Shown here piece after piece: positions 4,273 through 60,000 of a stretch of 64,000 nucleotides of DNA; within the stretch, counting starts at the first letter, position 1, and each line of letters starts with the position of its first letter. The notes below the pieces were generated by a model. The model was not told the DNA's origin. It worked only from the letters and a program-made list of their open reading frames with translations, and did no database searches. Source of the DNA: Amoebophrya sp. A120 (lineage: Eukaryota > Protista > Dinoflagellata); assembly GCA_905178155.1 (NCBI GenBank), contig CAJINV010000001.1:13142635-13206634 (forward strand), in the 5' to 3' direction. Made by a program: the position numbers and the translations under genes.

Positions 4273-6169
4273 CTACCCACATCGTCTTTTCACAGGGCTC
4301 TGTGATCGCGACACACGGTGAACCTCCCGCAGTACACTTTTGCTTAACGCCCGCGACTGTGCCGCTGCTAGGCGAACCTGGAATGGATTCTCGTTTTCCT
4401 TTTCCTCGCTATCGCCTTGTCCCGCATTCGGCCCTTCCAAAGCAACCGCGGGAATGTACAGCCGGGCCTCTGTCTGCAATTTCCAAATTTCCTTCAGCAT
4501 CTCCTGTTTCCGCAAGAACGTGTCGATCTTGGCCGCCTGCACTCCGCCTTTTTTCTGGATTTCTAGTGCGGCCTGCCGGTTCCGCAACCGCTCGATACAG
4601 TCCCGCTCGTACCGCTTTAGCGCCGGGGCTGTGGACGGCAGAAGGGTTTGTCTTTTTCCCGGATCTAGAATATTTGTACCCCCGTTGCGACTTTTCATGC
4701 TGGGCGATGAAGCTCGCTGTTGATGTTGTTGCTGTGCTTTTTGCATAGAACTCACATCTCCGGCAAGAAGAGCAGGAGGTGCGAAGGCGCGATCCCCCTC
4801 AGTATGAAGCTGATTCGCCGTGGTCTCGAGCTGCGCCAATGCGAGACCAAAAGACTGCGTTTCGTCGTGTGCCCACGGGTTGATGTTGCAGTTTTTGCTT
4901 CCGCTTTTTCCATCACCTTTTGCGGACATTGCCAAAATCGCCTCCTCCCGTTCTCTGCGTCGGCAAACGGCGCTGCTATCCACAGAAAAAAAACCCATCC
5001 ACATCCATTTTCTGCATGACAGACACATGATTTGATACGTGTTTTGCATTACAAATTGGATGTGGATGGGTTTTTTTCTGTGGATATTTGCGCAACTCCG
5101 CGGACGAAGCGTTCTTCTCCATTTTCAGATGGGTCAGCAGTTCCGCCATCTCGCCTTTCAACTTTGCCTTCTGCTCGGCGATGGCCGTCAATCGCTCCCG
5201 CGCCGCCGCTCTTGCCTTCCCCCTGCTCGACGGACTGCTTGAGGACTCGTTTGGAAAAATGTGCGCCATCGGCTGCTGCTCCGTTTCCAGCTCGATATCC
5301 TGCTCGGTCGAGGCTGAGAGAAAGCCTCCCTCACCATCTGGATCGAAGATCTGTTTCTCATGCTGCTGAACAAGCTCTGAACTTCTGTGATCTACTCCGG
5401 CGTCAGAGGAAGTGCTACTTGCACCATCGTCAGCTCGCAAATACCCCGGGAGGGGCAATTTGGCAGCCCATTTCGCTGGCACGTGCTTCTCATCTGCGCG
5501 TGCTCTGATGTCTTCGATTTTTGTCAGGCTCATCCCGTCGTCGCCCAACACATCAAGAACATCGCCTTCTAGATCGTCGTTCCAATATTTCTCGGTCGCG
5601 ATGAGACGTTTTAGCCACGATTCCAACTGCACGGACTTCTTATTTGTATCGGGCGACGGTGTGCGTGACCCTGACCCAGTAAAAGCATCATCATCCACCT
5701 CGTCGTCAAAGTCGTCGCTATATATGTCGTCCTCTTCGTCGTGCGACTCTCCATACGCCTCGCCTTTTTCACCGCGTCGGGTGGACTTTGGCGACTCTCG
5801 CTTCTTGGGGGACTTGCACGTGGTTGTGGTGAAACGGGTTTTCTTATCTTCCCGGCGTCCAGGCGTGACGCTTGTCGGTTTTTTAGTTGCAGAAGTAGAG
5901 AAGCTACGCTTATCCTCTACTATTCGACGCGGTGACTCGTAGGCAACGTTTCTCGGGGCCCAGCGCTGTTCTTGCTGCGTGCCTGTATGTAGTTGCTCCT
6001 CACTATCAACAGCCTCGAGCGCATCACCTCTTCCGCTGCGGCGCGCACGTTCCCATCTGCCCCGGCCGGGTTCGGCGCGGTATTCTGTTGCCGCTTTTGC
6101 ATCGACCCGGGACCACAGTCTTCGAAGATGATCGCTCTCGTGCTGTTGTGATGAATCTTGAAGCCCCAT
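4273..6169 (-). CDS. Hypothetical coiled-coil/low-complexity protein, two ORFs joined across a TIR intron
   Basis: ORFs 4976..6169 and 4273..5049 join in frame (ELRK|AVCRRREREE) when 4977-5086 plus 5 nt is removed. Confidence 0.7.
4977..5086. mobile_element. TIR introner, family D (110 bp)
   Basis: TATCCACAGAAAAAAAACCCATCCACATCCA...TGGATGTGGATGGGTTTTTTTCTGTGGATA; flanks GCTGC/TTTGC. Confidence 0.9.
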
Positions 6170-11000: not shown

Positions 11001-12471
11001 ACATCGCCGAGCAGCTCGAGGTAGAAGATGTAGGCGGCTTTGCCCGGCCACCCGTGCTCCAGTGAAGTGTCAATGAGGTGGAGCACATACCTGTGGTAGT
11101 CGTGTCCATTCTTCTATTTCATCTACTTGGAGGACAATCAGAACCAACACTTCCTTTGCATCTGTATCTATCTTGCAGCACCTGCCGTGCTGGCACTGGC
11201 AGCTTGTGACGTTAATGTAACGAACAAATTAGTAAGAGGACAAGGACCAACGTCAAAGGCAAACCAGAACTACAAAAACTATGTGAAATTCACTGTACTT
11301 GAGCATAGTGACGACGATCATTGCGGCCATGGAGAAGGACTCGAATATGGAGTTCTCAAATGTTACATTCTCAACCGTTACATGAATTTGTAATGCAAGA
11401 CTGGCAAAAGTGAAAGGAGAAAGATTGCGCCTCTTGCATTACAAGTTTCACGCAGATTTAGGCGCGGCTTAGCCCTTCGCAAATTTGTCATGCGGAGCAG
11501 CCTTATCGTGAGGATGATGATGGTGTTTTTGCATGACAGATCCATGTAACAGTTGAGAATGTAACGTTTGAGAACCCCATATCGAACAGAATCCAGGTGT
11601 AAAAGGTCGAGTGCCGTCCGCTCGCGGCGTAGAACCTTTGCAGCGTCGCGATGTCGACCAGAATGAGCAGCAGCATGAGCACCGCGAGTTTTATCTTCAC
11701 GGATTTCTTCGGGGCCCCGATCTCGAACATGTGGGTCACCCGGATCTGCGCGATCAGGTGAAACATCTTCAAAAAAATCACCCCGACGATGAACTGCATC
11801 AGGCTCAGCGTGGCCACCTCTTTTTGGTCGATCGTCGGGGAGTAGAACACCAGAAAAAGGATTGTGTCCGCGAGAAACCCCCGGCCACTGTCAATCAGCT
11901 GCTCGATCTCCAGGTCGCGAAGTCGCCCTGAAAGATTATGAAGCAATTCATTTTTGTAGTTGCAAGAAAAAGAATAAAGCGAAAGCCGATATAGTATTTT
12001 CATCATAGGTGAAGAAAAACATGATCGATCCTGAAGATCAGGTATGATTCACGTTCAGGAAGATGCACCAAACGTCGCACTCAGTAGAACAACTAGGCTT
12101 ACCGATGAAGAACTTGAGCGTTAGCCATCCCAGCATGACGAACAGCGAGAAAAGGAAGTTGTACAGGACGGCAAGGCTCACCTGTTTTTGGTTCATAATT
12201 TTCATTCCTTTTGTAATTTGACGTAGAGGGTTACTTTTGCAACGAACCCTTTCCACAACCAGATGTAGAGACACACCTAGTAAAAATGCTCTTGAGATGC
12301 TTTTCTATTCTTGCCGCAGTCACACAGCATTTTTCGTCGGAAAACAGCTTGTACTTTGTCGCTGGCCAGGTGGATCACCGCAGGGTAGAACTGCTCGTGT
12401 ACACTCCAGGCATGCAGGCAGTTTAGCATTGCCGCCCCTGCGGACAGCACGAAGTACGAGGAAAACTTCAT
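8010..12471 (-). CDS. HRD1: ERAD E3 ubiquitin ligase HRD1/synoviolin-like, multi-exon
   Basis: N-terminus MKFSSY...HEQFYPAVIHL; GRLRDLEIEQL; FLKMFH; KYVLHLID...W..KAAYIFYLEL. Spliced RING-H2 reads CIICRDDL...LPCNHIFHVDCLKSWL|VMQQVCPTCR (exons near 10445-10612 and 10168-10311). Long Pro/Ala/Gly/Ser tail at 8010-~10000. Confidence 0.92.
11346..11581. mobile_element. TIR introner, family A (236 bp) in HRD1
   Basis: TATGGAGTTCTCAAATGTTACATTCTCAAC...GTTGAGAATGTAACGTTTGAGAACCCCATA; perfect TCGAA direct repeat; removal gives WILFE|SFSMAAM. Confidence 0.95.
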
Positions 12472-13859: not shown

Positions 13860-13913
13860 TTATTTTTGTCATTGTCTACTTATTCGTTATTTTTGTCATT
13901 GTCTACTTATTCG
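13860..13913. repeat. Perfect 27-bp tandem duplication
   Basis: TTATTTTTGTCATTGTCTACTTATTCG x2 in intergenic DNA. Confidence 0.9.
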
Positions 13914-14253: not shown

Positions 14254-17200
14254 CTAGTCTTTCGACTGCAGGCGATCAAATTGTGCAAGCGCCGCGTCAA
14301 GATCTTCTCCTGCCTCTTGAGAGAGTAATTCGTTAGAAGACAGGGAGAGACTGTCACTGCTGCTGCTGCTCAACGAGTTCGGAGGTTTTCGCCGCGCCGC
14401 TTGAGTTTGTGCTGTCTTTGGTGCTGTGTTATCGCCTCGTCCGGCGGCCTCTTCTGCACCCTTTCCTCCCCCTGAAACGCTGCCAGCAAGAACTTCGTCG
14501 CTCGCGACTGCGGCAGCAGCAAGGTCAGAAGCATCTTCGTCAGCGCCCTCGTCTTGTCGTGCGCTGACCGAGGATTCCTTCGAGGATGCGACGCGAAACG
14601 ACGAGGAGCTCGACGAGGAGGAGGATGAACTTGAGGACTTTACCTCAGCGGAGGAATTTCTCTTGCTCAGAACATCATCCTCCGATACACGATCGCGATC
14701 AGGATCACGCGCTGCGACAGACGAAGCGGAAGATGATGAAAATTCACCTCCCGCAGAAGAAGCGCCTAGAATATCATCTTCGTGCAGCCCCCGCGAAGCC
14801 GAAGACGAACTCCGACTGTCTGCCACCAAGGACCTCCTTCCCTCAGCTTTGCTCGGATCATGTCGACCCGTACTACTAGCTTGATCTCCTAGAGCAGCTT
14901 CATTGTGCTCGCCTTCCGTTGCAGCCGACGAGGCTGCGGAAGAACTTTGACCAAGTAGAAAATCTTCGTTGTTCTCTTCCTGTGCTGCTTGTCCTTCCTG
15001 CGCGTTCAGTTCCTGTTCGTCGAGGAGACGAGCAGTCGAAGACTCATCCTCGATATGAACAAATCTTTGCGGCTCGCTCTGTACCTCATCCTCGACGGTG
15101 AATGTCCTGGCTTCCTCTTCGACATCACCGTCCTCAGCTAGACCGGCCCACTCGTCGTCGATTTGCTCTTGCAGATCCGAACCCGACAAGACTTCTGACG
15201 CATGACTTTCCTCGTCTGCGAGCAACTGGCGCCGGAACATCGAGGAAGGTGACGTGGGCGGACTCGATCGGACGACCGACGGTGGACGGGGTGGAGGTCG
15301 CGGTGCCTGCTCGTCCGCGTAGTTTTGCTCGGCGGGGACAAGAATTTGGGTCACGCCACTTACTTTTTCCAGCGCTGTAATGCCGGACGACCCTGCCGGT
15401 ACGAAGAAGGAGCTGCTGCCTTCTTCCGAATCCTTCTCCAACTGATCAGTATTTTCAAGATTTTCAGCATCCTCCGCAAGAGACGGGATTATTTTCAGAG
15501 CGGAAGGCTTGTTTCTGCGCATCGTGGAGCCCCGAGACGTGGAAAATGTTGACGGCGCAACTGGTGGCAAGTAAACGTGCTTTATTGGCTCCTGCTGCAT
15601 TTTATTCCTCGAAGTAGACCGCGACGAGGCTGACAGGGACACAGACAGTCGGGAATTTTCCTTCTCCATCTGTGAGGTGGAAGAATTGTTCTTGTTACCT
15701 GGAGCTGCTCCACCTGCCTCCATCTGCGATGCGTTATGCGCCGCCTGCAAATGGGTGGCTTCTTTGTGCAGGAGCTGCTCGACGAACAAATCGGTGATGA
15801 GACTCTTCGAACTTCGGGCCGATAACACTGAGATGTCCGCCGACAGGGCCTGCGTTTTGAACACGTTCGGAATCTCGTTTCGCGGGTGGCCGTCGTGGAC
15901 CAGCAACGGCTCCGAGTACAACAGGCTGGTGACAGCGTAAAGCGGGTTGAAACCGAGCTCGTCCCGCGACAGCACGTCGTCTAAATCCCGTTCCGCCAGA
16001 AGTTCTTGTTGCTGACTGTGGTCTTTCGTTTCTTTATTTTCCTTGCTACTCGTCCGATCTACTCCAGCAGTCGCGGTCATAATTTCAGCGGTTTTTTTCT
16101 GGTTGAAGCTTTTCGCACCAGTGCCACCATACAGAAATGAGTCCGCGCCACCCTTTATCCTGAGTAAAAACGTACCCACACCAGAGTCAAGATGGGGAAT
16201 CGGCTAGACAAATCCACAAGTTTTGGCTGTTTTGCATGACAAATTCGGATTCGTAGTATAGTGCTGCTTGAGCTAGCTCAGCAGCATCACAGATCTAGCA
16301 TACCATGCTGATTGGAGCATGACAAATTGCAAAACACGACTAGAAAATGCTTCTCATGGAGCTCCGCATGAGAAACATTTTCAGCATGCAGATTTGCATT
16401 ACAACTCTGGTGTGGGTACGTTTTTACTCAGGATACCCTTCACCGCGTTTCGGAAATCGTCGGCAGTGGGCTTTTCCCGATTGGGCGAACGAAGGAGCCT
16501 ATCAAAAATAAAAATGTCTGGGTCTGGAAACTTGTGATGCTGGGTGGCGTCTCATGATGAGGCTACAGATGCTGGCTCAGCATGACAAGTTTCTGAGCTC
16601 CTAGCTGTTGCCTATTGCTATTCTGCATGACAAACTGCGCTTCTGCATCACAGAAAAGCGGAGCTCTTGGGTAACGTGCATGACAGATTTAAGAGTCATG
16701 CCAGACAAGCATGACAAGTTGGATTCTTCCAGACCCAGACACTTTTACAGTTATTAGAGCCGCTCTTCGGAGAGAAGCACCCGATCGAAAAGGTCGGAAA
16801 GCATCAGCTGAATCTCGGCAACGAGGTTGTCGATCAAAAAACTTTTGTTTCTTGCCGCTCCTGATTGATGTTGTCCTGGCTTCTCTTCTCTCAATTGTAC
16901 GACTCGTTTCGGGGAATACAGTTCCTGCTTTTCCTCCAGATAAGCGAGAGAAAACTTCGTCAGCACCTTCTCGAGGAGCTGCTGTAAAATCGCCTGCTCA
17001 CCGAGTGAAACATCTACATTTTCGTCGAGGAAGGCCGTAGTGTCTACAACTCTCGGAGGTGGAGATGAGGACGGATCAGTTGGAAGTTGTGCTGTTCCAG
17101 CTGCAGCTTCATCTTGCGGCACTTCTTTCTCTACTGCTTGCTGCTGGTCTTGCCGATTTGCGGCTGCGCTTCCCCCTATTTCGGTTTGTGGCGAGTTGGT

Positions 17201-43612: not shown

Positions 43613-43749
43613 GCTGCTGTATCACACTTTTACAATTTCACTAAGCGGAAGCTAACGCCGGTGCTATGGTGGTTTTGTAAAAGTGTGATACAGCAGCGCA
43701 GTGTACTCGTGCGAGCACTACCGCGATCTGCTGTATCACAGTTTTCCAA
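43613..43749. repeat. Perfect 23-bp inverted repeat plus a third direct copy
   Basis: GCTGCTGTATCACACTTTTACAA (43613-43635) and its complement (43675-43697); CTGCTGTATCACAGTTTTCCAA (43728-43749). Confidence 0.9.
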
Positions 43750-44788: not shown

Positions 44789-47700
44789 CTAGACCTTCTC
44801 GCAGCAGATCTGCCGAAAGTGGTACTTCATGGCAGGCTCGCGGTTCGTCCTTTCGCCACTGGGGATATGCCAGTAGATAACGGAGTTGACGGATGCATGC
44901 TCCTTGGATTCCGACCACCTCCAGGATGTTCCGTCGCTGCACCAGTCGTGTATTCCCTGAAACAAAACTAACCACCCCCATCCAATTTGTCATGCTTAAC
45001 AGACTGCGCAGCTCAAGCCCCCATTCAATTTGTCATGCAAAACATGTAGGAAATTCTGTGTCTGTCATGCAAAAAGTAGATGGTGATGGTTAATTTTCAG
45101 GGAATATTGTGGCTCTTGATCCCGTACTTGTCATCGTACTTGCCGGCTTGGAGGTCTGCACAGGTTTCCGGATGCCCAGGGGCGACCACTTTGTTCGATT
45201 CTATGGGATTCCCAAGCGGTCAAATCTCAACTGTTACATGATTTGTCGCGAAGATCTACACGATGACGATCGCAATCTCGATCAAGCTGCTTCGCATGAC
45301 AAATTCTCGAAGGGCCAAGAAACAGCATGGAAATCAATCTATGCCAAATCTGTAATGCGAGAGGAGCAGCAGGCTCCCGCTCCCCAATTTTGATTTTGCT
45401 TTTGCTCCCCTTGCAGATACAAATTCAATCGGGTGCTCGCTTCTTCAGGCGAGCGAGTAACTGTTTAGCGTACTTTCTATGTTCCTGCTTGTGAATAGCT
45501 GGCGAATAGTGTTTCAACTTATCACCACCGGAGCTTGATGAAACAAAACCCTTTTTAGCTGTGAACCAGTCAAACTCGGGGAGTTGCCTGGGAGAATGTC
45601 AGCCGGAGCCAACTATCAGCCCTGGCTTCAGAAAGGCGCAATACTACCTCCTCATCCGTACTGCACCTATCAACCTCCGCACAACCGCAAGGTCCTAAGC
45701 AAGCCGCCTCTGCTTGCCCTTCCTTGCGTCAGAACAGGCGCCATAGAAATGGCAGGTCCTAAGCAAGACTCCTCTTCTTGCCCTTCCTGCCGACCCCACC
45801 TGAGCCTGAGCTCTGGCAGTGGTACGTAAACGCCACCAAGAGACACAGGAAAACACGGAGTTATGCCCTGCATCTCCCAGTTGCCCCCCTTTACCCTAGC
45901 CCTAACCCTTAAACCCTACTGCTGCACCGCATTGCTCGGCGCCTGACTATTTGTTTCGCTGCACTCCTGGATTTGGTAGTGGGTCTACTTTTGCTTCTTA
46001 TTTGCGCCTTTGATGTCCTGCATCGCTTCATTAGTGGCTCTGTACCCGAAAGTAGGAGAAGCGCCGACTTCTCCAGTAGCACGGTTGCGGTGAGAGTAGT
46101 CGCTGCAATATTGAAAAACGGGAACCGTAGGTTCGCCTGCTACTTCCTTTCCCGTCAAAAAGGATCGGCTTCAGTGAGAGGGAACCGCAAAAGAAAAAGG
46201 GTGTTGCTTCTGGAGAAAAACAAACATGCTGGATCGTCAGTATCTTCTTGTAAGACCTGCTGGCACTGCTTGTGTGTGGAACAGACTTCTGCTGCACGCG
46301 ATTTTCGATCTTGTGCGGAACAACATCTTGGATCAATTCGAGCATTACGACCTCTGGATGGGAAGTAGCACTGCGCAAGGCAGCGCGCTCAAGAATCCTG
46401 ATCTTCATTACTACTATTCCTTGCTTGGATGGATCCGATACAGGAGCAGGCTGAAGTGGTGATCCTTGTTGTCACTGCATCGCCAACTACTGACCCGTCT
46501 TGCCAGGTCTGCAGAAACATCTTCCCTCTGATCTTGCCTCGCCCCATCCTGGTGCGAATACTTCTTTCACCCCCTCAGTCACCCGCCTGCTCCGCACCAG
46601 CGCCGTCTAGCTTCCTCCTTTTCAGCGCCTCCTTCCCCTCCTGCAACCACGCCCGCGGGACCGCCGCCATCTCCTCGGCCCTGGTCGGCTTGTCACTCCT
46701 CGTCTTGTACGGCCAGCAGTGCGATAGGCTGATCTTATTCTCCGGCTGCTGGGTCGCGTCTATTAGCCTGTTCATGTGCGTCTTGGGGCATTTCTGGATC
46801 ACCCTTGGCGCATGCTTGCCTGCGTATTTGGCAGCTTCCGGGACTGCGGGGCACTCCACTAGGAGGTGGTCCACTATTCTGGAAAACTTCCGCACATCTT
46901 GGTCTTCGTCATCCTCCTTGAAGCCCTTGATCCAAGAGCCTCCCTGGACCCGCTTCACCTTGACGTCGCCGCCACAGAGGCGGCACACTGGCCATCCCCG
47001 TGGACATCGTTTGACCATCGTTGCCGGTAAAAACGATTCTCCCGACCAAAGCGACAAAGCGACCCGCTGCTGCGCTTCGTTTAGCCCCGCTAGCTCCAAT
47101 CTCCCTAGCGCCCGGACCCTCGACGCCCGGTGTAGGGTAGTCACGTCCCGGTCTGCCTCTGCTTCCACTGCTTCGTGGGAGCTTTTGCGCTCCTCCCGCG
47201 CAATGAGCTTGACCCGCTGCTTCGAAATAGGTTCACACACCACATCTTCCGGGCTGTCTTCTAGCTGCCCCAGGCCGTCTGCAATGACATTAAGTCGGAA
47301 GCCCCGGTGGGACGGCACCCAGAAAATTTCCACCGTGGTGCCCAGGTGGTTCACGAGGATCTTGTTGATCCCCTGCCTTATCTTCGTCATGTATTCCAAC
47401 CTGCTGCAGCTGTTTTCCAAGGCTTGCAGCACACCATTAGCGTCGGTGAAGATTCTGACTACTGTATGCCCATCCTGCAGCGCCTCGTCGATGATCAGCA
47501 GTAACTGGTCCAGCGCTATTGCCTCAACATCAAATTGGGGGAATTCGGTCCAGACCCGAAACGTTACTGCTTGCTGGTCTTCCGTCGTTTCGTAGAAGCA
47601 GTTGGCCCGCTGCGATTTCCGGCTTGTCCCGCTGCCTCCCAGTTTGCCGCCATCGCAGCTCGCCCGGAGTTCTTCCGGTGGCACCGGCATTGGGCATAGC

Positions 47701-50700
47701 TGTTGCTCCATGGCCATCGCCAAGTCTTGCTCCTGGCCGTGCTGTATGTCGAATCGGGCGTAGACCTTCTTGGACGTGAAGATCTTGATCCTACTCTCGT
47801 CGAACCACTCCGGCTGCTGGTGCAGTCCCCCAGCGGAGACTGCATGCCCTTTCGCTTCGCCCATCAGGAAATACTTCATCGTCTCATGTTCCACTTGCAA
47901 GTTATCCAGCGGGCAGCCCATGCCTATCAGGTCAAACGAGGCCTGGACCGGGAAGAGAGACGACAGTCCAAGCGAGGATCGCAGCGCCTTTGCGACCGTG
48001 TTTCGCAGCTCTTTCTGTGCTGCCTTGTCCTCCTGCAGGCCTTCATAAAGTGCCGCGGCGGCGTAGTTGAGGTGACTCCGGCATTGCTCGTTAAAGAACT
48101 TGACGTCTTCCGCCGGGATACGCTCCTCCTTGGTCTGGTTCGCACGCGTTTTCGCTTTCGCCAGGATCTTCACCTGCCTGCGGTCGACCTCTCGCTCCGT
48201 CCTTCCGCAACTCTGCAGAATGAAGCCGAGATATTCGAAAAAGCTGCTGTCGCCCGCGCTGCCTCTTGTGGCCTTCAACCACTCTACTTTGCCGAAGGTG
48301 AGTCCCGTATGCCGCTGCCAGTCGGTAATGTGCGCCTCAGCTGCCGCCTTTTCCTCCTCCACCTTTCCGCCGTCGAAATCGAAGAGGAGGAGAACATCGT
48401 CGGCGAATACCTCTGGCAAGAGCTGGACGATGGACCTGTCCAGCTGGTCGATGGAATCCGCCAAGTAGACAACCCACAAGGCCGGTGGGAGCCTGGGGCC
48501 TTGGCCCATTCCGACTATTGGCGTCCAGCGGATAACTATCGCGCCGTCCACTAGTATTGCGTGACAGCGACCCCGGAGCCATTCGTATATCTGGTAGCAG
48601 AGCTCCTTCGACGCGCCTCGCTTTTGGAGTCTTTTCACCATCTCCGAAAACAGCACATTTTCAAAACCGCCTTCAACGTCGGCTTTTCTGGCGTATTTGG
48701 TGCGCCCTGCGGTTCTCGTCCTGAAGTGCCTCACTGCTCTGTAGAGTGATACGTCAGCGGACTTTCCTGGGAGGTACGCCGACTGCTCCACCACCTCCTT
48801 GGCGATCTTGAAAAGCTCCTCGAGTAGAAGCCCCTCCGGGACTTTGTCCGGAGCGTCAGGCAGCGCCACCGGGCGTTCGTTCTCCACTAGTCCCATCTTC
48901 TCCTGGACCTTGGGAACCGCAGAAATTAAATTACTCTTCTCGAAGGCCATTGGTCGCATCTCATTGTATGCGTCCTGTTGTTCCGCAACCCATCTCTTCC
49001 AATACTCCAACGGCACCTCTCTCACCTGCTCGGGGCGTATCCCGGAGAGACCAGGACTGCGGGCCGGGAACACCGCTGCGAGCGCCCTCTCCAGTGCGCC
49101 TGACTTCCACTCGACTTTGGCACTTGGGCCAGCGTTTATCAACTCCATTATCTTCGCGTGGGAAACTGGGTCACCACCGTGGGGCTCTTTTCTTCTGAAC
49201 CTCTTCTCCCTTGTTCTAGCGATTTCACCTGGATCAAGGATGATCCTCCCCGCCTTGGTGTCCATGAGCAGTGCTTGCCGCTCCCTCGGGATGGTTGCAG
49301 ATTTTGTTATGCGGGCTGTCCCCATCGCCTTGGCGAGGTCGCGTGCAAGGTGGAGATGCTTGCTGTGGTCATTGGCCATCTCCACCATGCTGTCCTTCAG
49401 AGTGCGTTTCTGGTCCTCAGTCATCTTTATCGGCGCTCGCATCCGCTGCTCTGCAGTGGGAGGTAGCTCCGGCAATACCCGTTTCGTGAACGCCGAGCTT
49501 TTGACCTCGACCCAGATACCCAGATGGTCCGACAGCACGTACTGCGGCTGTACTGTTTTTGCTGTCGCCTTTTTCGTCCCCCGGTCTCGGATGAAAGCCA
49601 CGTCCGGCCTGGTCTGGGCTTCCGCCGCAACCCTGCTAGGCGTCGTTGGGAGTAGGTCTTGCACCACTCCGCTTCTGCACTCCTGCCACCTTCTCACCTT
49701 CGCCTCCGAATTGTAATCGCCTGTCGCCAACATCGTTTTGCCTGAGAAGCCGCTCTGTATCGTGTGAAGTACTACTTGCAGCTCCTCAACTCTCTTCTCC
49801 TTCTCCTCCTGCGTTAGCCCCTGCCCCTGCGGGGGCTTTATGTAGCCCTGTGCAGATACAAATTCAAACTCATGTAACAGTTGAGCGTGTAACGTTTGAG
49901 AACTCCATAGAAGCGCGTCCGTCCTTACAGCAGCTGATCTTGGCAATCCCCGGGTCTTTCCTGTCGTACAACGTAATCGCATTCTGGTCATCGTCATTGA
50001 ACCCTCCGCTGTCATTGCAGAGGTTGTGGTCGAGATCCTGCAGCCATTTGCACTATCAGAATGAAAAATCCCCCCTCCCCATATCTTATCATGCTGCGGC
50101 ATCCATTTGTGTACACGAATCAGATCTGTGCTGCAGTAAAGGACTGAACGCAGAGCGCGACCCTAGGTCGGGGCCTTTTCATGTAGGCGCCTAGCATGGA
50201 AGACGTCTGCCCTGTAAACCTTACAGCATCACAAACCGCCTGCATAACGCGGCGAACTCTCTGGATTTGCCTACTTCTTGCAAGAGTGACAGGATTTGTC
50301 TTTGTGGTCGCAAATCTGCATCACAAATTTTCAGAAGGATCATGCGTTCTTTTCAATGTGGGGAGGCGGGACCTTTCCTTGCAATATGCACTTGTAGTTG
50401 TTTTGCTTGTCTTCCGGGCTGGTGCAGCACGTGTCCACGCAATGGCCCTCCGGGTCGTTCAGCGCTCCCGCTCCCCGGCAATAGTTGCGCGGTTGCCCGT
50501 CTTCGTGTGCGATGAGCCACATTCTGTTGTCGTCGCAGATCCCGTGACTCTGCTCGAGACTTTCGCACGTAATCCGGGGTACCGCGGGCACGCACCCCAG
50601 GAAAAGAGTCACGCTCGCCCCTCCGTTTTCCTTGTACTTACAGAACTCGGCCTTCTCGGGACTCCCCGCCACGTACACATCCGACCCACCGTCGCACACA

Positions 50701-52906
50701 TCCGACGTGATCTGCTCTCCAAACTGGCGCGTGCCCCATCTTCCCTTGTCAGGACCAGATATGCATTGGAAATATGTCGTGTGGGTCTGGAAGACTTCTC
50801 CGAGATTGTGCTGCTAGGTCTGGTCGACAAAAAAATGACTCTGTACTTATTGCATGACCAGCAAAGGCGCCCACTTTTGGCCACTCGAAGATGCCATTTG
50901 TCATGCAGGACGATAGGCATCGAGGAGGCTTCTCAGAACTTGTGACGCTGGCGCCCGTATTCCAAACCATCTGGGTTAGTGTCAGAGTCGTCGTCGGTCG
51001 TGTGAATAAACCTCCTGCATGACAAAGCACACAATCTACTTCCATACACCCGAGACGATAGTTTGCAGTTGATGCCAGACGTTGTGGCGCCGTTCTGGAG
51101 GCAAAATTTCTGCGCCGTTACCAAGGCCTTATCGTTGCACTTCTTCTTTACGCTGCCCTCGTTGCTGGCGTAGTCGTAGACCGAGCCTTGAAGTTGTGGT
51201 TGTCGTTTTTGTTCGAGTGCATAAGCATAGTACTACTTAATAATCTCAAGGTCAATGTCAGGAACAATGTTGAAAAAACCGCGATAAACAAGCCACTAGC
51301 GACGACATCTGATATTTACAATTAGGCGAAGCTGAAAAAAGTCATCTTGTAAAGCACGACCTTTTTTCCAGTAGAACGCCTGCTCAGAAATGCTGATCTG
51401 ACTCTCCGCACCTCCACCGGTAATCAATTTGCAGACCGGAAAACTGGCCGACCCTTTAAATTTTATGGAGTTCTCAAGCGTTACATTCTCAACTGGTACA
51501 TGAATCAGAATCTCGGACGCAAGAATAGGAAAAATAAAAGAAGGGAGCGTGCACATCTCGCATTACAAATTTGGCACGGATTTTCATGCTGTTTAGTCCT
51601 TCAAAAATTTGTCATGCGAAGTAGCTTTATCGTGTGGGTGCTGCTGTGCGTTTTGCATGACAAATTCATGTAACAGTTGAGAATGTGACGTTTGGGAGTC
51701 CCATAAAGATGACCATGCCATTGTGAACGCCCTCGGGCTCCGCTTCGTACTCCGAGGCGGGCGGCACGCCCGTATCAAATGCAAAAATGTCTGGGTCTGG
51801 AAGAATGCAACTTGTAATGCGTATTTCAGTTTCAGAACACAAAAAAGTCTCTCATGAATACGCAGCAGAAGCTCCCACTTTTTGTCAGCAAAATAGGGGA
51901 CTTGTCATGCGGATTCGGCATTGCGGAAGGTTCTAGAAACCTGTGATGCTAGAGCTTCCATGCCAGACCTTCTGTGTCATGCAAAAACAGCATGACTCTT
52001 CCAGACCCAGACACTTTTACACTTCATAGCCCGGAAGGGAGTTGCAATTTGCGTCCGGCGTCGGTCCGTGCGGGCAGCGCTCTTTGTAAGCCTTTTCCGC
52101 TTTTTCAGCCAATTCCTTCAGCTTGTTGTAGGACTCTTCGGTGTGCACGCAGAAGTATTGTGGGTACATCCAGCTCGGCCTGCAGCTCATCCAACTGCCG
52201 GTCCATTCGTTGTAGGCATTCTGTATTCCGTGAAAATTAACCATCGCCACCCAGTTTGCCATGCAAACGATGTAGAAAGTTCTGTGTTTGTCATGCAAAA
52301 AGTGGATGGGGATGGTTGATTTTCAGGGAATATTCTGGTATTTCAGCTCGTCCATGTTGTGTTCGGGGGCTTCCTCGCCCAACGCCTCTTGGGCCTCTTC
52401 CCAGGACTCCTCCAGGCCCTTCACGTGGACTTGCACTGCAGAGGCCAGGCTTGTTTCCCCCTCCTGAAGACAATGATTTTTGGAAAATCTTCATCTGGGG
52501 ACGCGATTTACAAAGACAAGAAGGCGCTCCTGCGCTCTTCGTATTTAGTGTTTTGAAAAATAATGATTTGCAAAGAACTTTTTCATTTTTCGGCGCAGCC
52601 GGTCTTGTTTCGCAACGGGCCCTATAATACCTGCAATATCTCCATAGTTTCATCGGAGCCCTGCTTGTTGGGAGTCGCGTCGCCGGTGGCGCCATCGACT
52701 TCGTACAGATTTTTCTGCTGCTGGCCCCGAAGACTCCTCTGAGACGATTTATCATACGCCGACACAGTGGAAATCAACTGCGTATCTAACTTCACACAGG
52801 TGGTATAGAGCAGGCACGATGCTGCGAAAGCACGGGGGCGCGGAGGACCTGGAAACGAGAAGGACCCGCCGGCCCCGATGCTCCCTTGGCCTGGTCCCGC
52901 AAACAT
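44789..52906 (-). CDS. Cys-rich repeat protein split by 6-7 TIR introns and 2 GT-AG introns; hosts the LINE
   Basis: A continuous frame can be rebuilt: MEILQ|EGETS...LKYQN|AYNEW...SLPG|VPPAS...MVIF|KGSAS...WKK|GSVYD...NCK|QCISG...EKN|CKWLQD...DGRAS|NKVV...KSHN|WCSDG...QICCEKV*. Confidence 0.8.
44951..45106. mobile_element. TIR introner, family D (156 bp)
   Basis: TATTCCCTGAAAC...TTTTCAGGGAATA; flanks TCGTG/TTGTG. Confidence 0.9.
45429..49850 (-). mobile_element. 5'-truncated non-LTR retrotransposon with RNase H (I-group/Ingi-like architecture)
   Basis: Perfect 17-bp TSD TGCAGATACAAATTCAA at 45412-45428 and 49851-49867; ~1.1-kb 3' non-coding region; no poly(A). Confidence 0.93.
46575..49850 (-). 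CDS. LINE polyprotein: C-terminal part of APE endonuclease, RT, RNase H, CCHC finger
   Basis: ATGDYN and SDH (APE); ERPVAL, KADVEGGFENV, GMGQG, FADD and YLG (RT); SCDGG, EAIAL, FTDA and WVPSHRG...N..AD (RNase H); CRLCG...HLLVEC. No internal stops. Confidence 0.92.
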   Translation of the reverse strand, partial: QGYIKPPQGQGLTQEEKEKRVEELQVVLHTIQSGFSGKTMLATGDYNSEAKVRRWQECRSGVVQDLLPTTPSRVAAEAQTRPDVAFIRDRGTKKATAKTVQPQYVLSDHLGIWVEVKSSAFTKRVLPELPPTAEQRMRAPIKMTEDQKRTLKDSMVEMANDHSKHLHLARDLAKAMGTARITKSATIPRERQALLMDTKAGRIILDPGEIARTREKRFRRKEPHGGDPVSHAKIMELINAGPSAKVEWKSGALERALAAVFPARSPGLSGIRPEQVREVPLEYWKRWVAEQQDAYNEMRPMAFEKSNLISAVPKVQEKMGLVENERPVALPDAPDKVPEGLLLEELFKIAKEVVEQSAYLPGKSADVSLYRAVRHFRTRTAGRTKYARKADVEGGFENVLFSEMVKRLQKRGASKELCYQIYEWLRGRCHAILVDGAIVIRWTPIVGMGQGPRLPPALWVVYLADSIDQLDRSIVQLLPEVFADDVLLLFDFDGGKVEEEKAAAEAHITDWQRHTGLTFGKVEWLKATRGSAGDSSFFEYLGFILQSCGRTEREVDRRQVKILAKAKTRANQTKEERIPAEDVKFFNEQCRSHLNYAAAALYEGLQEDKAAQKELRNTVAKALRSSLGLSSLFPVQASFDLIGMGCPLDNLQVEHETMKYFLMGEAKGHAVSAGGLHQQPEWFDESRIKIFTSKKVYARFDIQHGQEQDLAMAMEQQLCPMPVPPEELRASCDGGKLGGSGTSRKSQRANCFYETTEDQQAVTFRVWTEFPQFDVEAIALDQLLLIIDEALQDGHTVVRIFTDANGVLQALENSCSRLEYMTKIRQGINKILVNHLGTTVEIFWVPSHRGFRLNVIADGLGQLEDSPEDVVCEPISKQRVKLIAREERKSSHEAVEAEADRDVTTLHRASRVRALGRLELAGLNEAQQRVALSLWSGESFLPATMVKRCPRGWPVCRLCGGDVKVKRVQGGSWIKGFKEDDEDQDVRKFSRIVDHLLVECPAVPEAAKYAGKHAPRVIQKCPKTHMNRLIDATQQPENKISLSHCWPYKTRSDKPTRAEEMAAVPRAWLQEGKEALKRRKLDGAGAEQAGD
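50054..50341. mobile_element. Degenerate TIR-intron candidate (could alternatively splice as GC-AG)
   Basis: TATCAGAATGAAAAAT...ATTTTCAGAAGGATC; internal TGCATCACAAAT motif; interrupts the Cys-rich frame. Confidence 0.5.
50773..51060. mobile_element. TIR introner related to family B (288 bp)
   Basis: TATGTCGTGTGGGTCTGGAAG...CTTCCATACACCCGAGACGATA. Flanks are decayed (GGAAA/GTTTG), yet removing the element plus 5 nt gives NCK|QCISG in frame. Confidence 0.8.
51464..51705. mobile_element. TIR introner, family A (242 bp)
   Basis: TATGGAGTTCTCAAGCGTTACA...TGTGACGTTTGGGAGTCCCATA; flanks AATTT/AAGAT; frame restored. Confidence 0.92.
51773..52028. mobile_element. TIR introner, family B (256 bp)
   Basis: TATCAAATGCAAAAATGTCTGGGTCTGGAAG...CTTCCAGACCCAGACACTTTTACACTTCATA; perfect GCCCG repeat. 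Confidence 0.95.
52224..52332. mobile_element. TIR introner, family D (109 bp)
   Basis: TATTCCGTGAAAATTAACCATC...GATGGTTGATTTTCAGGGAATA; perfect TTCTG repeat. Confidence 0.95.
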
Positions 52907-54206
52907 TCGCGCGAAACTTCGTGCGAAAAAGCTGCTGCCCTCGTGACAAAGAGCAATATTCCTATTCGTTTATATGTCCGCGACGTAGAGTGAGAATTTC
53001 ATATTAGAGATTAAACAATTTTTAAAAAATCAAAATGCATTCACATCCAGAAAACCACTCTTCGGGAAGTGAAAACGAAGCCCCGTGCTTACAGCTGAGG
53101 TTGTGCAACGAACATCAGGGTCCACACTATCCTTGATATACCATATTAGGTCGTAACTAATCGGCCACCTCAGGCGTCCTCTCGTTGTGCCGTCCCCCTC
53201 TCGTGGTCCACCTCGCACGCACGCAATATGTTTCCGAACGTCCTGCTGGCTTTAGGGCACCGACCAGGGTCGGGAGAACAAGAGCTGCAAGGAATTATGT
53301 ATCTATTATTTTCTTTTTGTCCAATTTCTACCTCGAAGAACATCCCAAAACTACATCATAGAGCTTCATCTGACTCATCGAACTTCCACTGGAAAGAAGG
53401 TGGACTATCAACTTTGTTGTACGAGATCGATGCTTTTGCTTTTGTGCATCGAGTGCTTTCCCATTTTTTGCATATGTTCTGCCTTGCGATCGCAACTGCG
53501 TTCGTTACAAAGAGGAGCCACATCCTGTGCTACTACTTCACTCTCCCGCCATTCACTTCTATTTGTATTTTGTTATCGTAGCCGCTCTTTTATCGTGGAT
53601 GTCAATTCACACGACGACATCTTTACGGTGGCAACGCGTTACAGTTGCGGCACGCGACACGCGAGGTCATGCCCGAGAGTGACGCCTTCACGTTGCCCTC
53701 TTCACTGTGAAAATGAATGGCAACATGCACGACCACACCTCTTACGGTGCGCGTACGTGTAAAGAAGCCTGCTCTCACAGACTATTTATGTAGGTCAACG
53801 ATATCTGCTGAAAAATTAAAGAAATCGAAGAAGTACACAATCATCGTGTGTAAAATGCGCGCGAATACGAGTAGAGCTGGAAGTATTAAGAGAAGTGCCA
53901 TGATGAAACCCGGGAGGTTGACCTTGTTGTTCACAGCATGAGAACGAAGAGGCAGAGAGGCGAACAAGGAAAACTAAATAGGCGCCCCATTCCCCTGCGT
54001 TCCCGTTGTGAAGGTCAGCGTTAACGTTATGAAGAAGCAGCTCTTCGTAAAGAAGGAAATCATGCACCTCAGCACTGCCGCCCACGTCGGTTCGTGACGC
54101 CCTTCAGTCCTGCTCTCGTTTCTTGAGACCAAAGAACTGCACGACCACTCCAGCGAGAGAAAGACCTGCATATCACCTTGAAACCAGCAGTCCCCGAACT
54201 CCCCTG

Positions 54207-55969
54207 CTATGAAGACGAGAGCGTATCCTGCGTCTGCTTGCTCATGCCGCTGTTGCGACGTCTGCCCGAAACAACTGCATGCACAACCAAAACCTTTTTG
54301 TTGCTCTGTTCAAATTGGAGTAGTACTCGCTGCAAAAGTCCGGCGTGCTCTTTCCAAAGTGATACGACGAGCCCGTTCACTATCCAGGAAAAAACACCCA
54401 CCACATCCAAATCCACCTATTTTCTGCATAACAGGCACTGCAACTGGATGTGAGAGAAAATGAATTTGTATTTGGTGCATTCTTCGCATGATAAATTGGA
54501 TGGGGATCGATGGATCTTTTTTGCCGATAGTCACCATCAGCCAGAATTCCCCGCTTTCTGTCTGGAGCATCTGAAAACGAGATTTTTTTAAACCGGGTAG
54601 TTCCGTGTCTGTATCCATTTTAAGATGAAGAACATGAAACTCAAACCAACCTAAATTTGTAGTCATGACTCATGACATGGATGGGGTTATCAATCGAGTC
54701 AGCGGTCATACATGATACAAAAAAATGGCTGTACCTCGTCCCCCCGTTCCTTGATGAGCGCGTCCATTTCAAAAAGTGGCGTGAAAAATTCGCCCTCGCC
54801 CTCCGTTGCCCGCCAAATGTGATTGAAGCCGAGACAGATCAAGGCAATCACACGGAAAATCACTAGCAAATCCTTTTTCATCGTTGTTGTCCTGCTCAGG
54901 TCAAACCGCAATACATAGGCAAGCCTATCTGCGCTGCAAACCTGAAGAGACACGCTGTGTCGCCTTACATTTCAATGACCGATTACGTTACAATTTACAA
55001 CTTACTTTGGCTTTATCATACATTGTTTCCTTGTCTCAACGAAGGTCCCTTTTCTTTTGCGATCACAGAAGCGAAGATCCTGCACTAGCAATTTTCTGGA
55101 TGGTATGGTAGGCCCCAAGGAAACTGGTAGCACAGATGAAAATCATGTTCTCTACTACTTTTCTGGAAGCGAGATACCCGGCGACAAAGGTACTTATGCC
55201 CAGAAACGCATACCGCACCAGATTCAGGTAGGCGTCGCCCTCGGGCAGGTGCTCCAGCTGCTCTATCACGATCTCAAACATGAGAATCTGCTGGAATGCG
55301 AGGCCTGTCCAAGGAAGTTGTACTTTCTTCGTACAAGTTGTAGAAATGAAACAAATGGGCTGCGGGTCCCCCGCCGATAGCATTTCAGGCGGCGCAACCG
55401 GAACGGCGACCATGTCCGAAACAAGAGCAGTCATCGTCAATACAAGCAAAATAAAGTGAAGATGCGTCGCCCGTTCATTCTTAATCCTCAAAGATCACAA
55501 GAGTACCAGCAAATGGCAACCAGCAGAGGGCGCCCAGGCAAAACATGGCAAGCGGAACGACCGAGACGGTTGCGATTCCGGAGAGCAGTCCAGTGCCATA
55601 CTGCAGAAGCGTCGCTGTGCTCGAGGGCACCGTTTTCGGGAGGTTTTTCTGCAGAAACAGCTGGAACACCCAAAAGCCAGTGAGGAATCCGACCAGAAAG
55701 AAAACAAGTCTCATCATTTTCAGACCACGGAAGGCGAATAGCAGGCCGACCACGAGGCAGAGTCCGGTAAACGTGTATTCTGACCATTCCTCGGGCAACC
55801 CAAAGTCCTCCATCATGAAGTCCTTTACGACATCATCGGACACCACCACTACTGGCGCTTCCGTTTCCTGTTCCGCGGCAGGAGGGGCAGTGCTGGATGA
55901 TGGTGCAGCAACCGCCGCCTGCATGTAGTACGCAGTGGCGGAAGCAACACTTCCAGGAGTAGCGCTCAT
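54207..55969 (-). CDS. DUF4203/TMEM198-like multi-pass membrane protein, multi-exon; 3' exons tentative
   Basis: LVVGLLFAFRGLKMMRLVFFLVGFLTGF...GLLSG...FCLGAL...CATSFLGAY pattern. Confidence 0.7.
54381..54529. mobile_element. TIR introner, family D-like, diverged (149 bp)
   Basis: TATCCAGGAAAAAACACCC...GGATCTTTTTTGCCGATA; flanks TTCAC/GTCAC; removal gives FWLMVT|GLVVSLW. Confidence 0.75.
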
Positions 55970-57056: not shown

Positions 57057-60000
57057 TCACTCCCACATTCTCGAGCTACTTCCCCCTCCTCTCTGCCAAC
57101 TGCTGCTGCTTGCTGCCCCTCCTGCCGTCGGAGACGATAGGCCCCCGCCGGACGAGGACGTCTGACTGGCCAACCGCTTCGTCTTCTGCACGGCCTTTTT
57201 GCTCATGGATCCGCGCCTCTCGGGCAAGTGCAGGAAATTACAGGCGTCCCCCAGTCGGCATTTGCCGGTGGTCTCCCAGTGCACGCAACCCTTGGTCTTC
57301 GCATTGCTCGGCGCGTCGTTCTGATTGGTATAGTCCGCCCAAGTTTTCAGCGGGCCGCCGCTGCGATTTAGCCGCACGGAGGGACTCGAGTCGCCGCTTG
57401 GAAGCTGCAACAGCGTCGCCGCGGGCGGGGGCGGCGGAGTCGTGGGGTTGTAGTTGCTGTCATTATGCGAAGGGCGGCGGGCAATTTCAGGTGGCCTGAA
57501 AGCCGGATTGGACGTTGTCGGAGACGAAGGTGCTACATTTGTGGTTGTTCCGCCCCCCGGTGCAGCTCCGGCGACTGCACCACCACCCGTGCCAAACGAC
57601 CCACTCCGCATTGCTGGCGAATAGTTGTAGCTCAAGATGTTAGAAGGACTACGTAAAGTAGAAGATGCTGCCGGCAGAGCCGGAGAAGCTGCCGCAGTTT
57701 TCGGGGTCGCGGAAAGACTTGTGCTTGTTTTCGGCGTTGTTGTCCCAGTATTGAAGCTACTCCTGGTCGTTCCGTCCGCTGCTGTATTCCCAATTCGGTC
57801 TGCTCGAGATTGTACTAGCATTTTTTGCTCGTCCCCCAGAGGACCATCGAGCTCTCTGCCTTCGACAAAGGGAGACGATTGCGCGCTTGACGACCCCCCG
57901 TCGCGGGGGTCGCCCTGACTGCTGGCGCTCTTGCTGCTTTGCGATGCGGATGCGGAGAAAAATTTTCGTGCCTCAAAGCGTTCCGGTCCGGGAGGCCGCG
58001 GCTTCCGCTCTTTTTTCTCTGCTTCTGCACCCGACTTCTTCGCTTTTTTGTTTTTAGTTCCCGAGCTAGTTGATTTGGGTTTACTCCCTACTTGGGTAGA
58101 AGTAGCTGCACTCGTCATCTGCGGATCATGTTGTGCCTGCAGTAAAATAAGATCATCCACTTGAGAGTTGGGGATTATGGGAGAACCAGGAAAGGATTCC
58201 CCGCCGGCACTCGTGGCACTAGGCCGCGAAGTTGACGTGGCGCCGGCATTCCCGCTGCGGCTGGACTTTTCGCTCGAGGCCCCAGCGTGCAAATACGTTT
58301 TGTCGTTGGAGGAAGACGTTTTGTTTTCTTCAGTCGACTCTTCCCGCACCGCGGCTAAATACTGCGCCATCAAAAATTGGCTGGCCGCTGGCATGGCGCC
58401 GGGTGGTGGCGGAGAAGATGAACCAAAAAGAGTGGTCGTTGTTCCACCTACGCCTCCTACTTCTGCTCCGGCGGCCGCTCCTGCCAGCAGCATCATCTGC
58501 ATCTGCAACGCCTCCGGTAGTGGTGCTGCGAGGTTTGGATTTTCATTTTGCAGTCCGGCGCCGGGTGCATCACTTCCGTTTCCAGCCGGAAAAGGCGATC
58601 CGCCAGCACCGGCCGCTGCGCCGAGCAGACCGGGGAAGTGCGCTGGTAGCAACAGCGGATCCATAAACGCCGGGTCCATCAGGCCGCCGGGGCCGAGGAG
58701 GGGCTGTCGCATCATATGATCAGCAGAAAAGGCACCACTAGGCGGTGCGATCCCCATGTTGCCTCCGCCAGGAGGTGGGCCGGCGGTCGCGTTAACGCTA
58801 CTGAGGTCTCCTCCTGCGAATGCTGCCGGGAAGAGCTGTGGAAAAGAAGCGCCACTTGGATGAAAAAGCAGCTCGGGCATCGCTGCGGAAACAAACGCTG
58901 CATGGTTTGAGTTTGTGGTTCTCATCATCTCCTCGCCTGTGCCTGTCCACGTCGCGGAAGCCGTGGCCCAGACGCTGTCGCCCAAGAGACTGGAAAAGGC
59001 GCTCTGTCGCTCTTTGCGCACGCATATGAGAGTGGACAACTCGTCCTCCCCATTCTTACCATTAGCTGTGGAGGTTTAGCTTTCGTGTCTACAGCCACAC
59101 GAAAGCTAGCATTAATGTTGACAGGTTCTGCTTCACAAATCTGAATGTCTAAATAAGTTACCGTGCGCGAAGTACCAAAAGCAACACAAGGCAGGGATAG
59201 GAAAAGGAATGCATTTGAGATTTTGCATGACAAATTAATGAGGGGGAGCAGGAGGACCACGAGTTGTGCACTTTCATAACGCAGGCGTCCACGTGCTGGT
59301 GGAGCTCCTTCGCTACATTTCGACTTACAACAGCACCCACGTCGAGGACTTTCCCACCCAAGGCGCGCTGCACGCTCTCTGTAGTTGTTTTTGGAAACGC
59401 ACTCATTCTAGACTAAGCAGAGACAAAAACATAAACAAGATCATGGACAAGGAACGACAGGTATGTTCCTGGTGGCTTAGCAAATCTCATAAAAAATGAC
59501 AAGCTGTAGAAAATTCCAAAACATGATCCTCTAGGTCATGATCACTTACGCTTAGCAGCTGGTAAAATAAACTAACAGTACCTGTGGTAGGCTGCTCGCT
59601 GCTGCTTATCTCCCCGGCGCTTGTCTTCGAAGCGCTGTCGTCTAGTCCGGTCATGTGCATGCTGTTATTTGAGGGCGAGCTTGGCCGCGAGGACTCGACA
59701 CCCGCTGATGGTAATGCCCCCGCCCCAGGCCCAGGGTTAGAACTCTCTCTGCTAGCAACACGACCACCTCCATCTGCGGTCATTTCCAGTGCTCTTGCGA
59801 CGTAGTTGCAGTACAAGGCCTGAATATCCCGGGCGGACCGATCCAGGGCCCGCGCTATCACCTCCTTTGGAAGGTACCGCGATAATTCCAGCCGAGGACC
59901 GCCGCTCGACGGCAACCGGCTGTGGTCCAGACCCGATTGCTTGCTGGACACACTGTGCTCGAGAAAGTCGAAACCGCGGACGTCTTGCATGCTGGATAAA

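Follow-up and report, generated by a model that had tools for sequence, protein, structure and literature searches.

TIR elements that end in TA..TA, with repeats of 5 bp on their flanks, were found to be removed from RNA as non-GT-AG introns, and one register fits all resolved junctions within a 64,000-nt stretch of DNA (the window, to whose whole length all coordinates refer). At these junctions the element leaves with 5 nt of flanking sequence, one base on its 5' side and four on its 3' side, and the TA of the TIR lies at intron +2/+3. U+2 and A+3 of the genome's canonical GUA donor are thus kept, and G+1 and the 3' AG are free. Registers 0–5 denote the possible cut placements within the 5-bp overlap; in register 4 the intron reads N-TAT...ATA-NNNN (1 base before the element, the element, and 4 bases after it). 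The 4 exon bases upstream of the cut recur as the last 4 intron bases, so that any insertion site restores the original mRNA. The reading that we place slightly on the probable side is that the elements are DNA transposons of a non-autonomous TA..TA kind with a 5-bp TSD, removed from RNA with one duplicate at register 4, likely by a relaxed U2/U6 spliceosome.

Two window exons were 100% identical to database proteins named Amoebophrya sp. A120; this identity and the introner elements published for that strain bear out the link of non-canonical introns to Amoebophrya made in a preliminary description of this DNA. Splicing was assessed in two spliced contig sets (X1 and X4), treated as RNA from their skipping of canonical GT-AG introns (the RNA label being a guess); both runs came from one single study and consisted of contigs rather than reads. 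These were compared with a DNA-like run (X5), which had an even depth near 30, kept introns, and had contigs running from the flanks into the TIRs. A raw-read run (X8) yielded 125 reads matching one repeat end only, with 1/30 bins covered.

The window held 19 elements, 11 of which had perfect 5-bp repeats. The preliminary description had counted 16 elements and 8 perfect repeats; its TIR, TA..TA and 5-bp anatomy was recovered at the places that it gave. All elements and the micro-exon described below were on the (-) strand. Group A comprised the element at 11346..11581 in the HRD1/synoviolin gene (Pfam PF25563; perfect 5-bp repeat; RNA joint 11340>11582, 241 nt), the element at 24148..24382 in a gene with TPR and DnaJ Pfam matches (perfect repeat; contig gap with two options, of which 240 nt is one), 30448..30682 (perfect repeat; frame support only; no RNA joint among 15 listed of 217), 45202..49909 (RNA joint 45196>49910; register 3–5) and 51464..51705 (flanks 3/5; RNA joint 51456>51704; register 3 or more). 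Within 45202..49909 lay a 4.44-kb non-LTR-like retroelement (45412–49867), and the whole unit left as one 4713-nt intron; the retroelement ORF had no match in Pfam and matched an RT-containing chain only weakly (E 0.13). Two group B elements had opposite orientations, 16500..16756 (perfect repeat) and 51773..52028 (perfect repeat; RNA joint 51767>52029). The former was fitted in length jointly with a single-copy type at 16156..16435 (perfect repeat): RNA contigs retained 60/607 nt across the pair, and the missing 547 nt equalled both elements with their 5 nt. Group C elements were located at 4977..5086 (flanks 3/5; predicted intron 4973–5087), 44951..45106 (flanks 4/5; RNA joint 44945>45107 in X1 and X4; register 4 or 5), 52224..52332 (perfect repeat; RNA joint 52217>52332) and, in degenerate form, 54381..54529 (flanks 4/5; register 4 or less). 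Group E elements were located at 28636..28787 (flanks 4/5; sequence and frame only) and 39263..39423 (flanks 4/5; frame only). A TIR element at 59025..59278 had a perfect repeat and frame support only. For 28636, 30448, 39263 and 59025 the reading frame determines how much is removed only up to a multiple of 3; in an RNA length test of 28636, removal of the element plus 3 to 7 nt each fitted some model, and retention fitted none.

The remaining elements were more divergent. An element with TAC termini and a nested hairpin (43620–43690) lay at 43323..44001 (RNA joint 43317>44002, 684 nt; X4 depth 90.8). An element with a degenerate TIR (13/20) and a perfect repeat was located at 50054..50386 (RNA joint 50048>50387, 338 nt). 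A degenerate element with 8/20 end identity and the sense start CAT was located at 50760..51074 (RNA joint 50754>51075); its spliced form had an X4 depth of 113.8 vs 7.51 for the unspliced contig. A TIR element at 54171..54364 (flanks 2/5 only; register 4 or 5) was separated from that at 54381..54529 by a coding micro-exon of 11 nt (54366..54376), and RNA joint 54166>54531 carried exactly these 11 intervening letters (54366–54376).

The element plus 5 nt was missing from spliced RNA contigs at 11/11 resolved junctions, in agreement with the earlier proposal that these non-GT-AG introns derive from TIR transposons and leave the RNA, wherever inserted, together with exactly one copy of the TSD. 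Both element orientations, a non-coding insertion, the 11-nt exon and the 4.7-kb unit were all spliced. Taking out 7 elements and 2 canonical introns produced a 558-aa frame; otherwise the host frame reached at most 151 aa. The HRD1 junction was colinear with 10/11 aligned homologues, the 11th having only gaps there, and the TPR/DnaJ frame remained open after element removal. The element at 43323–44001 lies in non-coding transcript ~780 nt past a stop codon, yet is spliced. The statement that all elements interrupt coding exons therefore does not hold, 43323 being outside the reading frame. Dominant retention, use of cryptic GT-AG sites and excision from DNA, each named beforehand as a contrary outcome, were not seen where tested in the RNA and DNA-like contigs.

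The pairing of TIRs with flanking repeats was not attributable to chance. Fifteen window pairs had TIR identity of at least 14/20 and flank identity of at least 4/5 (12 of the elements above, 2 nested inner pairs and 1 satellite pair), whereas 30 block shuffles gave 0.47 on average and at most 3; for pairs with perfect flanks the figures were 9 vs 0.07. Repeated families were further supported by 37 more loci with elements in another assembly. Among 57 further elements from these loci the 5-bp repeat was perfect in 43 and matched at 4/5 in 9; lengths 3, 4 and 6–9 were never perfect, and length 2 was perfect in 3/57. Over the 38 ends in the window, T1 was present in 37, A2 in 38 and T3 in 35, so that the rule that all elements begin TA(T) has exceptions, among them 50760 with its CAT start. 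The terminal TA is also needed by a transposase, and its conservation need not reflect splicing. An A-rich stretch followed (A in 25, 28, 35 and 29 of 38 ends at positions 11–14). BLAST grouped the elements into sets of 5, 4, 2 and 2 copies, and X5 depth over element bins ranged from thousands to ~195,000 vs ~30 elsewhere. The families had been called unrelated; an internal motif, GCAT[GT]A[CT]A, proved common to 17/19 elements (43323 and 54171 lacked it), and its stricter form GCAT[GT]ACA had 35 occurrences in the 4.6 kb of element sequence vs one in the other 59 kb. From these shared motifs the families look like one transposon group. The internal motif was also considered as a branch point, which is unlikely: it is on the antisense strand only in RNA-supported 16156, 16500 and 54381 and is absent from 43323 and 54171.

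The register was fixed from imperfect repeats, which differ between copies. Perfect repeats at 6/11 junctions do not constrain it. The allowed registers of the 11 RNA junctions intersect in {4} only, with lower bounds set by 44951 and 54171 (4–5) and by 45202 and 51464 (3 or more), and the RNA upper bound resting on one junction, 54381 (4 or less). At 4977 the residue in deposited protein P0035 is given by register 4 alone, in a gene model that may derive from the same RNA. For six informative cases with random registers 0–5, the probability that all fit register 4 is p = 0.004, and that all fit any single register at most 0.023. No element of the 19 offered GT-AG in any register 0–5, and GC-AG was an option only at 16500 and 28636, exactly as previously described. 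Register 1, in which introns would end TA+N and both GC-AG options would be real, was ruled out by 44951, 45202, 51464 and 54171; in register 4 none of the 19 elements has GC-AG. U was present at +2 of register 4 in 18/19, the exception (50760) beginning GC, with C at +2. Canonical donors in the window (6 RNA-defined, 2 inferred) had G in 8/8, T in 8/8 and A in 7/8 at +1 to +3, and exon -1 was G in 6/8. G was enriched at TSD position 4, which in register 4 is both exon -1 and intron -1 (34/68 vs 0.29 in background coding sequence; p = 0.0004, uncorrected for ~20 cells); this base-bias count took in 49/57 loci elements (5 with <4/5 flank matches and 3 with stops were left out), strand calls were correct in 14/18 validation cases, and codon-position bias could contribute.

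Whole introns were folded for 18/19 elements, 45202 being too long. Terminal TAT/ATA was predicted to pair with a probability of at least 0.5 at 2 or 3 of 3 positions in 14/18. The predicted fold left the ends of 50760 and 54381 unpaired and showed open terminal bases in 50054; 50760 and 54381 still lost the element plus 5 nt. The idea of a 5-nt offset measured from the base of the hairpin holds for its total, which divides as 1 + 4, and a ruler measured purely by structure is not borne out: because these two elements splice with unpaired predicted ends, the sequence of the termini may be as important as the stem. In the mechanism we propose, insertion would be by a DDE transposase or integrase, probably of IS3EU/GingerRoot type, and the internal motif common to the families would be a DNA-binding site. 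A relaxed U2/U6 spliceosome would be the catalyst; the element's terminal UA would serve as donor +2/+3, end-to-end pairing would place the 3' cut, and the terminal stem may replace U1/U2AF in site finding. In the yeast spliceosome structure, as far as the source was available, 5' G+1 pairs with 3' G-1, and U+2 with U6 A51 (10.1101/212811). Given these contacts, joint loss of G+1 and G-1 with U+2 kept is the pattern expected of a relaxed spliceosome. In published Table S4, whose motifs come from aligner-placed junctions and are possibly biased, NT opens 9/9 of the non-canonical motifs most frequent in A120, and TT opens 9/9 of the A25 motifs. Amoebophrya is described, in the text available, as having a near-complete spliceosome in which U1 snRNA was not found (PMC7789003).

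An unlikely but substantial alternative keeps the same fixed register and assigns it to separate, spliceosome-independent, Euglena-like cleavage and ligation, freeing circles or linear RNA. By the available text on non-conventional introns of Euglena, an unrelated lineage, the code there sets paired triplets a fixed spacer away from either end, and excised circles are reported (Nomura 2025, PMC12501133; PMC11282704). These introns resemble those of the window in a suggested MITE-like origin, ends that pair (in the window by prediction, for most elements), set-spacer cuts and lack of GT-AG, and freedom of G+1, AG and any branch consensus, splicing in both orientations, and like treatment of an exon as short as 11 nt and an intron as long as 4.7 kb all suit such a system. 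Their code as given there (N3-CDG ... CH'G-N5-6, then a purine) is nevertheless absent from window ends, which read N-TAT ... ATA-N4. The kept bases moreover coincide with canonical +2/+3, G is enriched at -1, and elements with degenerate stems are still spliced. The accessible literature on Fritillaria borealis offers a precedent for spliceosomal adaptation to non-canonical introns of TIR origin: its introns are, like these, TIR/TSD transposon-derived, and an adapted spliceosome handles them (PMC11282704, PMC13326754). As reported there, Fritillaria prefers AG-AC/AG-AT ends, with U2AF duplicated and U1 retained, whereas the window elements keep no 3' dinucleotide, and for Amoebophrya U1 snRNA is reported as not found.

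It is improbable that only the total (element plus 5 nt) is fixed, with the cut sliding per element within the duplicated bases, as implied by the 2021 A120 paper, and register 4 simply commonest. Legends of that paper do describe sites as variable relative to the hairpin (Fig. 3) and repeats as lying 1–5 nt from splice sites (Fig. S23; PMC7789003), the part of a 2025 dataset covered (22/58 A120 rows) has mixed mechanisms and TSD lengths of 2–5, and only six window elements are informative. All six nevertheless fit register 4, 9/9 top A120 motifs start NT, and perfect repeats let aligners slide, which would itself yield the published variability. A hairpin with direct repeats is the classic setting for template switching, and the junction evidence is cDNA-derived; even so, it is very improbable that the junctions are reverse-transcriptase artefacts. 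Sliding homology amounts to just 1 nt at 54171 and 44951, there is no terminal stem at 50760, where the spliced form dominates, host frames require removal, and homologues are colinear over the HRD1 junction. Least credible is excision from DNA, somatic or life-stage, in place of RNA. It would suit the likeness of the elements to DNA transposons, and X1/X4 are labelled as RNA by a guess; against this, X1/X4 skip canonical GT-AG introns too, and X5 keeps introns, enters TIRs from the flanks and has depth 0 for 11340>11582 (72.1 in X1 and 33.4 in X4), a comparison that covers one joint in contigs, which drop rare variants.

The class, the hairpin idea and the 5-bp repeats are already published (PMC7789003). 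In the consulted portions of that paper (Farhat et al. 2021), A120 introner elements have TAT-starting inverted repeats, then 7 variable bases and AAA; they are non-GT-AG and MITE-like with 3–5-nt direct repeats (a 5-bp example is given) and a hairpin model. Window elements share with them the strain, the TAT-start TIR, the A run, 5-bp repeats, non-GT-AG RNA splicing and repeated families. According to the text of that paper, as covered, splicing follows no clear signature, sites vary and the border is unknown, whereas in the window one register (-1/+4) with U+2/A+3 kept fits all junctions and an internal motif links families; the paper's figures may show a modal register. The fixed register derived from imperfect repeats is the part not found in the print sources covered. 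No published register for A120 elements was found, with figures, subscription papers, 36/58 A120 rows and PMC12130899 supplementary files 13–14 outside the scope of the search. IS3EU/GingerRoot elements (PMC10045372, PMC12730594) likewise have TA..TA termini, and fungal IS3EU ends in TAYGG..CCRTA, as do group A elements; their TSD is usually 6 bp, in contrast to the 5-bp window type (0/57 perfect at 6, 43/57 at 5). No transposase was found among 23 window ORFs scanned, one weak TniQ match below cut-off falling in a host ORF. Algal and dinoflagellate introners, in the portion of PMC9860276 available, are also TIR-transposon introns, with the TSD contributing part of the splice site, but those shown carry or co-opt recognisable splice sites, whereas window elements need no particular target dinucleotide. 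The GT/GC..AG termini of U2-type spliceosomal introns are absent from window elements in register 4, and U+2 is present in 18/19.

These elements were published with their mode of splicing open and their border undefined in the text covered, and a fixed register leads to testable predictions and a guide for re-annotating ~30,000 introns. A bolder proposition, to which we give somewhat less than even credence, is that one hidden code, N|UA...UA-NNNN|, underlies tens of thousands of 'signature-less' A120 introns: one transposon group would provide U+2/A+3, the terminal stem would replace U1, U2AF, G+1 and 3' AG, and any insertion in either orientation would be silent. If the spliceosome is the catalyst, this is natural splicing without G+1 and 3' AG, with a bearing on the question of which contacts in the active site splicing cannot do without; if it is not, a second, independent Euglena-like system exists. 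In both cases the register accounts for the low cost at which a DNA transposon can saturate exons.

Nineteen TIR elements acting as non-GT-AG introns (named by start coordinate) were located between 4977 and 59278 by TA..TA inverted-repeat scans, sequence reading and RNA joints. Element lengths were 109-679 nt, save one of 4708 nt, and the 5-bp flanking repeats were perfect in 11, matched at 4/5 in four, 3/5 in three and 2/5 in one. Pairs with a TIR match of at least 14/20 and a flank match of at least 4/5 numbered 15 in the window, compared with 0.47 in 30 shuffles. The motif of group A (a BLAST family) was used as a query and recovered 37 loci in another assembly; 57 elements were called there without use of the flanks, and the 5-bp repeat was perfect in 43 and 4/5 in 9. 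As the preliminary description had stated, GT-AG was absent from registers 0-5 (0/19 elements; register = cut position within the repeat), and GC-AG was possible only at 16500 and 28636. Its placement of every element in a coding exon was incorrect, as 43323 sits ~780 nt past a stop codon. A short TAT..ATA hairpin with no direct repeat (43620-43690) is nested within this element (43323-44001). All host genes examined (window 1-64000) were on the minus strand, which fits the unidirectional clusters reported for the genus. Two window exons matched, at 100% identity, proteins whose database name is Amoebophrya sp. A120.

Removal from RNA was assessed in contig sets X1 and X4, which are presumed RNA and come from two samples of a single study. 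Their contigs agree near-exactly with the window but lack its canonical GT-AG introns. Among the joints listed, the element plus exactly 5 nt was skipped at 11/11 resolved junctions (11346, 43323, 44951, 45202, 50054, 50760, 51464, 51773, 52224, 54171 and 54381), as had been proposed; 15 joints of 217 were listed for the alignment that includes 11346. Elements 16156 and 16500 were fitted jointly (547 nt removed), and at 24148, in the TPR/DnaJ gene, removal of the element plus 5 nt was one of two options that fit. DNA-like contig set X5 kept the introns, with a depth of 0 for the HRD1 joint. One unspliced contig was listed, at 50760 (depth 7.51 vs 113.8 spliced). The claim that deletion restores HRD1 was confirmed, as no insertion appeared at the junction in alignments with 10 of 11 homologues. 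A 558-aa frame opened once seven elements and two canonical introns were removed, and an RNA joint defined an 11-nt coding micro-exon (54366-54376) between non-canonical introns 54171 and 54381. An X4 contig (43001-44945) spans a gene end (~44790) and element 43323 and runs towards the next downstream gene, representing a long 3' UTR, read-through or simply merged contigs. The sole raw RNA read match in the window (run X8; 16708-16749) falls on the end of a group B repeat, from which it shows 4 differences, and has different flanking sequence; its source is a related element that lies elsewhere or belongs to a different strain.

Imperfect repeats limit k, the number of bases retained from the upstream repeat copy. 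Allowed values were 4-5 (44951 and 54171), 3-5 (45202), 3-7 (51464) and 0-4 (54381); six perfect-repeat junctions were compatible with every k, and the intersection over junctions was k = 4. At 4977 the three possible products differ in one residue, and the deposited protein P0035, whose gene model may derive from the same RNA, carries the k = 4 residue. The chance that random registers would fit all six informative cases to one register was p ≤ 0.023 (our own arithmetic). The intron therefore reads N-TAT...ATA-NNNN, so that the 5-nt offset first proposed holds as a total, divided -1/+4. Outside support came from published motifs, of which the nine commonest in A120 all start NT and all nine in A25 start TT (PMC7789003 Table S4), and from a G excess at repeat position 4, a position that register 4 places at exon -1 as well as at intron -1 (24/49 loci elements, with strand inferred by calls that were right in 14/18 validation cases, and 10/19 window elements, vs 0.29 background). 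No statement of this register was found in the literature searched.

BLAST grouping gave families of 5, 4, 2 and 2 copies, with six elements ungrouped. These had been called unrelated, which we revise: the terminal pattern is common to all and an internal motif is present in 17/19. In its strict form this motif was counted 35 times within elements and a single time elsewhere. The motif can lie on either strand with respect to the transcript, and a role for a transposase is therefore more likely than one in splicing. Group A is spliced in both orientations (11346 and 51464 opposite to 45202). IS3EU/GingerRoot elements are likewise defined by TA..TA termini, but their TSD is usually 6 bp (PMC10045372, PMC12730594, in part) and that of the window elements 5 bp, so this likeness is a lead rather than membership. 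One group A element contains a non-LTR-like retroelement (45412-49867, minus strand; 4.44 kb) that is spliced out with its host. A direct repeat (≥15 bp) is present at each of its ends, and it has a 1195-aa ORF (46578-50162 frame) with no Pfam match and a weak match to an RT-containing chain; a few telomere-like units (45890-45920) lie close to its 3' end. Elsewhere, a ~1-kb GC-rich repeat bounded by a short direct repeat (26125-27160; X5 depth ~130-220 vs 28) lies in a long TPR/DnaJ intron, and a block without genes (34070-38560) holds short palindromic arrays along with satellite-like repeats rich in GC.

Both the class and the hairpin idea had already been published: Farhat et al. 2021 (PMC7789003, excerpts) describe 29,850 A120 introner copies with repeats that begin TAT and have a run of A seven bases on, direct repeats of 3-5 nt, and a hairpin bringing exon borders together. 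These excerpts report that U1 snRNA was not detected in A120, give no clear splicing signature and an unknown border, and term splice sites variable relative to the hairpin. The element system is real and already published; the additions that we could not find in print are the shared motif and the fixed -1/+4 register with conserved U+2, which is based on six informative junctions. In the portions consulted, introns of other strains are mostly canonical and one strain has U1 (PMC12005148, PMC11453091), a 2025 introner dataset mixes mechanisms and TSD lengths with superfamily unknown (22 of 58 A120 rows; PMC12130899), and introners taking splice sites from TSDs are described (PMC9860276).

In register 4, T+2 and A+3 come from the element and +1, -2 and -1 are free; canonical donors in window genes are GTA in 7/8. 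In the yeast post-catalytic spliceosome, G+1 pairs with G-1 and U+2 with U6 A51 (10.1101/212811, in part), so introns that lack G+1 and G-1 together yet retain U+2 are consistent with a relaxed spliceosome. We slightly favor such a spliceosome, in which the terminal TA would supply donor positions +2/+3 and pairing of the element ends would take over site finding by U1 and U2AF. A spliceosomal route is described for such introns in Fritillaria (PMC11282704 section 6; PMC13326754), and diplonemids have introns with paired non-canonical ends alongside a spliceosome that is near-complete (PMC12621601), each source seen in part. Against this reading, 50760 carries C at +2, the terminal TA is needed for transposition too, and any branch point is hypothetical. 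The leading alternative is a separate system like that of Euglena, whose introns use triplets that pair and are set at fixed spacers, and reportedly leave as circles (PMC12501133, PMC11282704, in part). As to the earlier proposal that splice sites are measured from the hairpin, a pure stem ruler is disfavored by 50760 and 54381, which are spliced though their ends are unpaired in the predicted fold (predicted end-to-end duplex of 50760, -10.1 kcal/mol, near six canonical introns at -4.4 to -7.4). The fixed register and shared motif make the mechanistic question directly testable.
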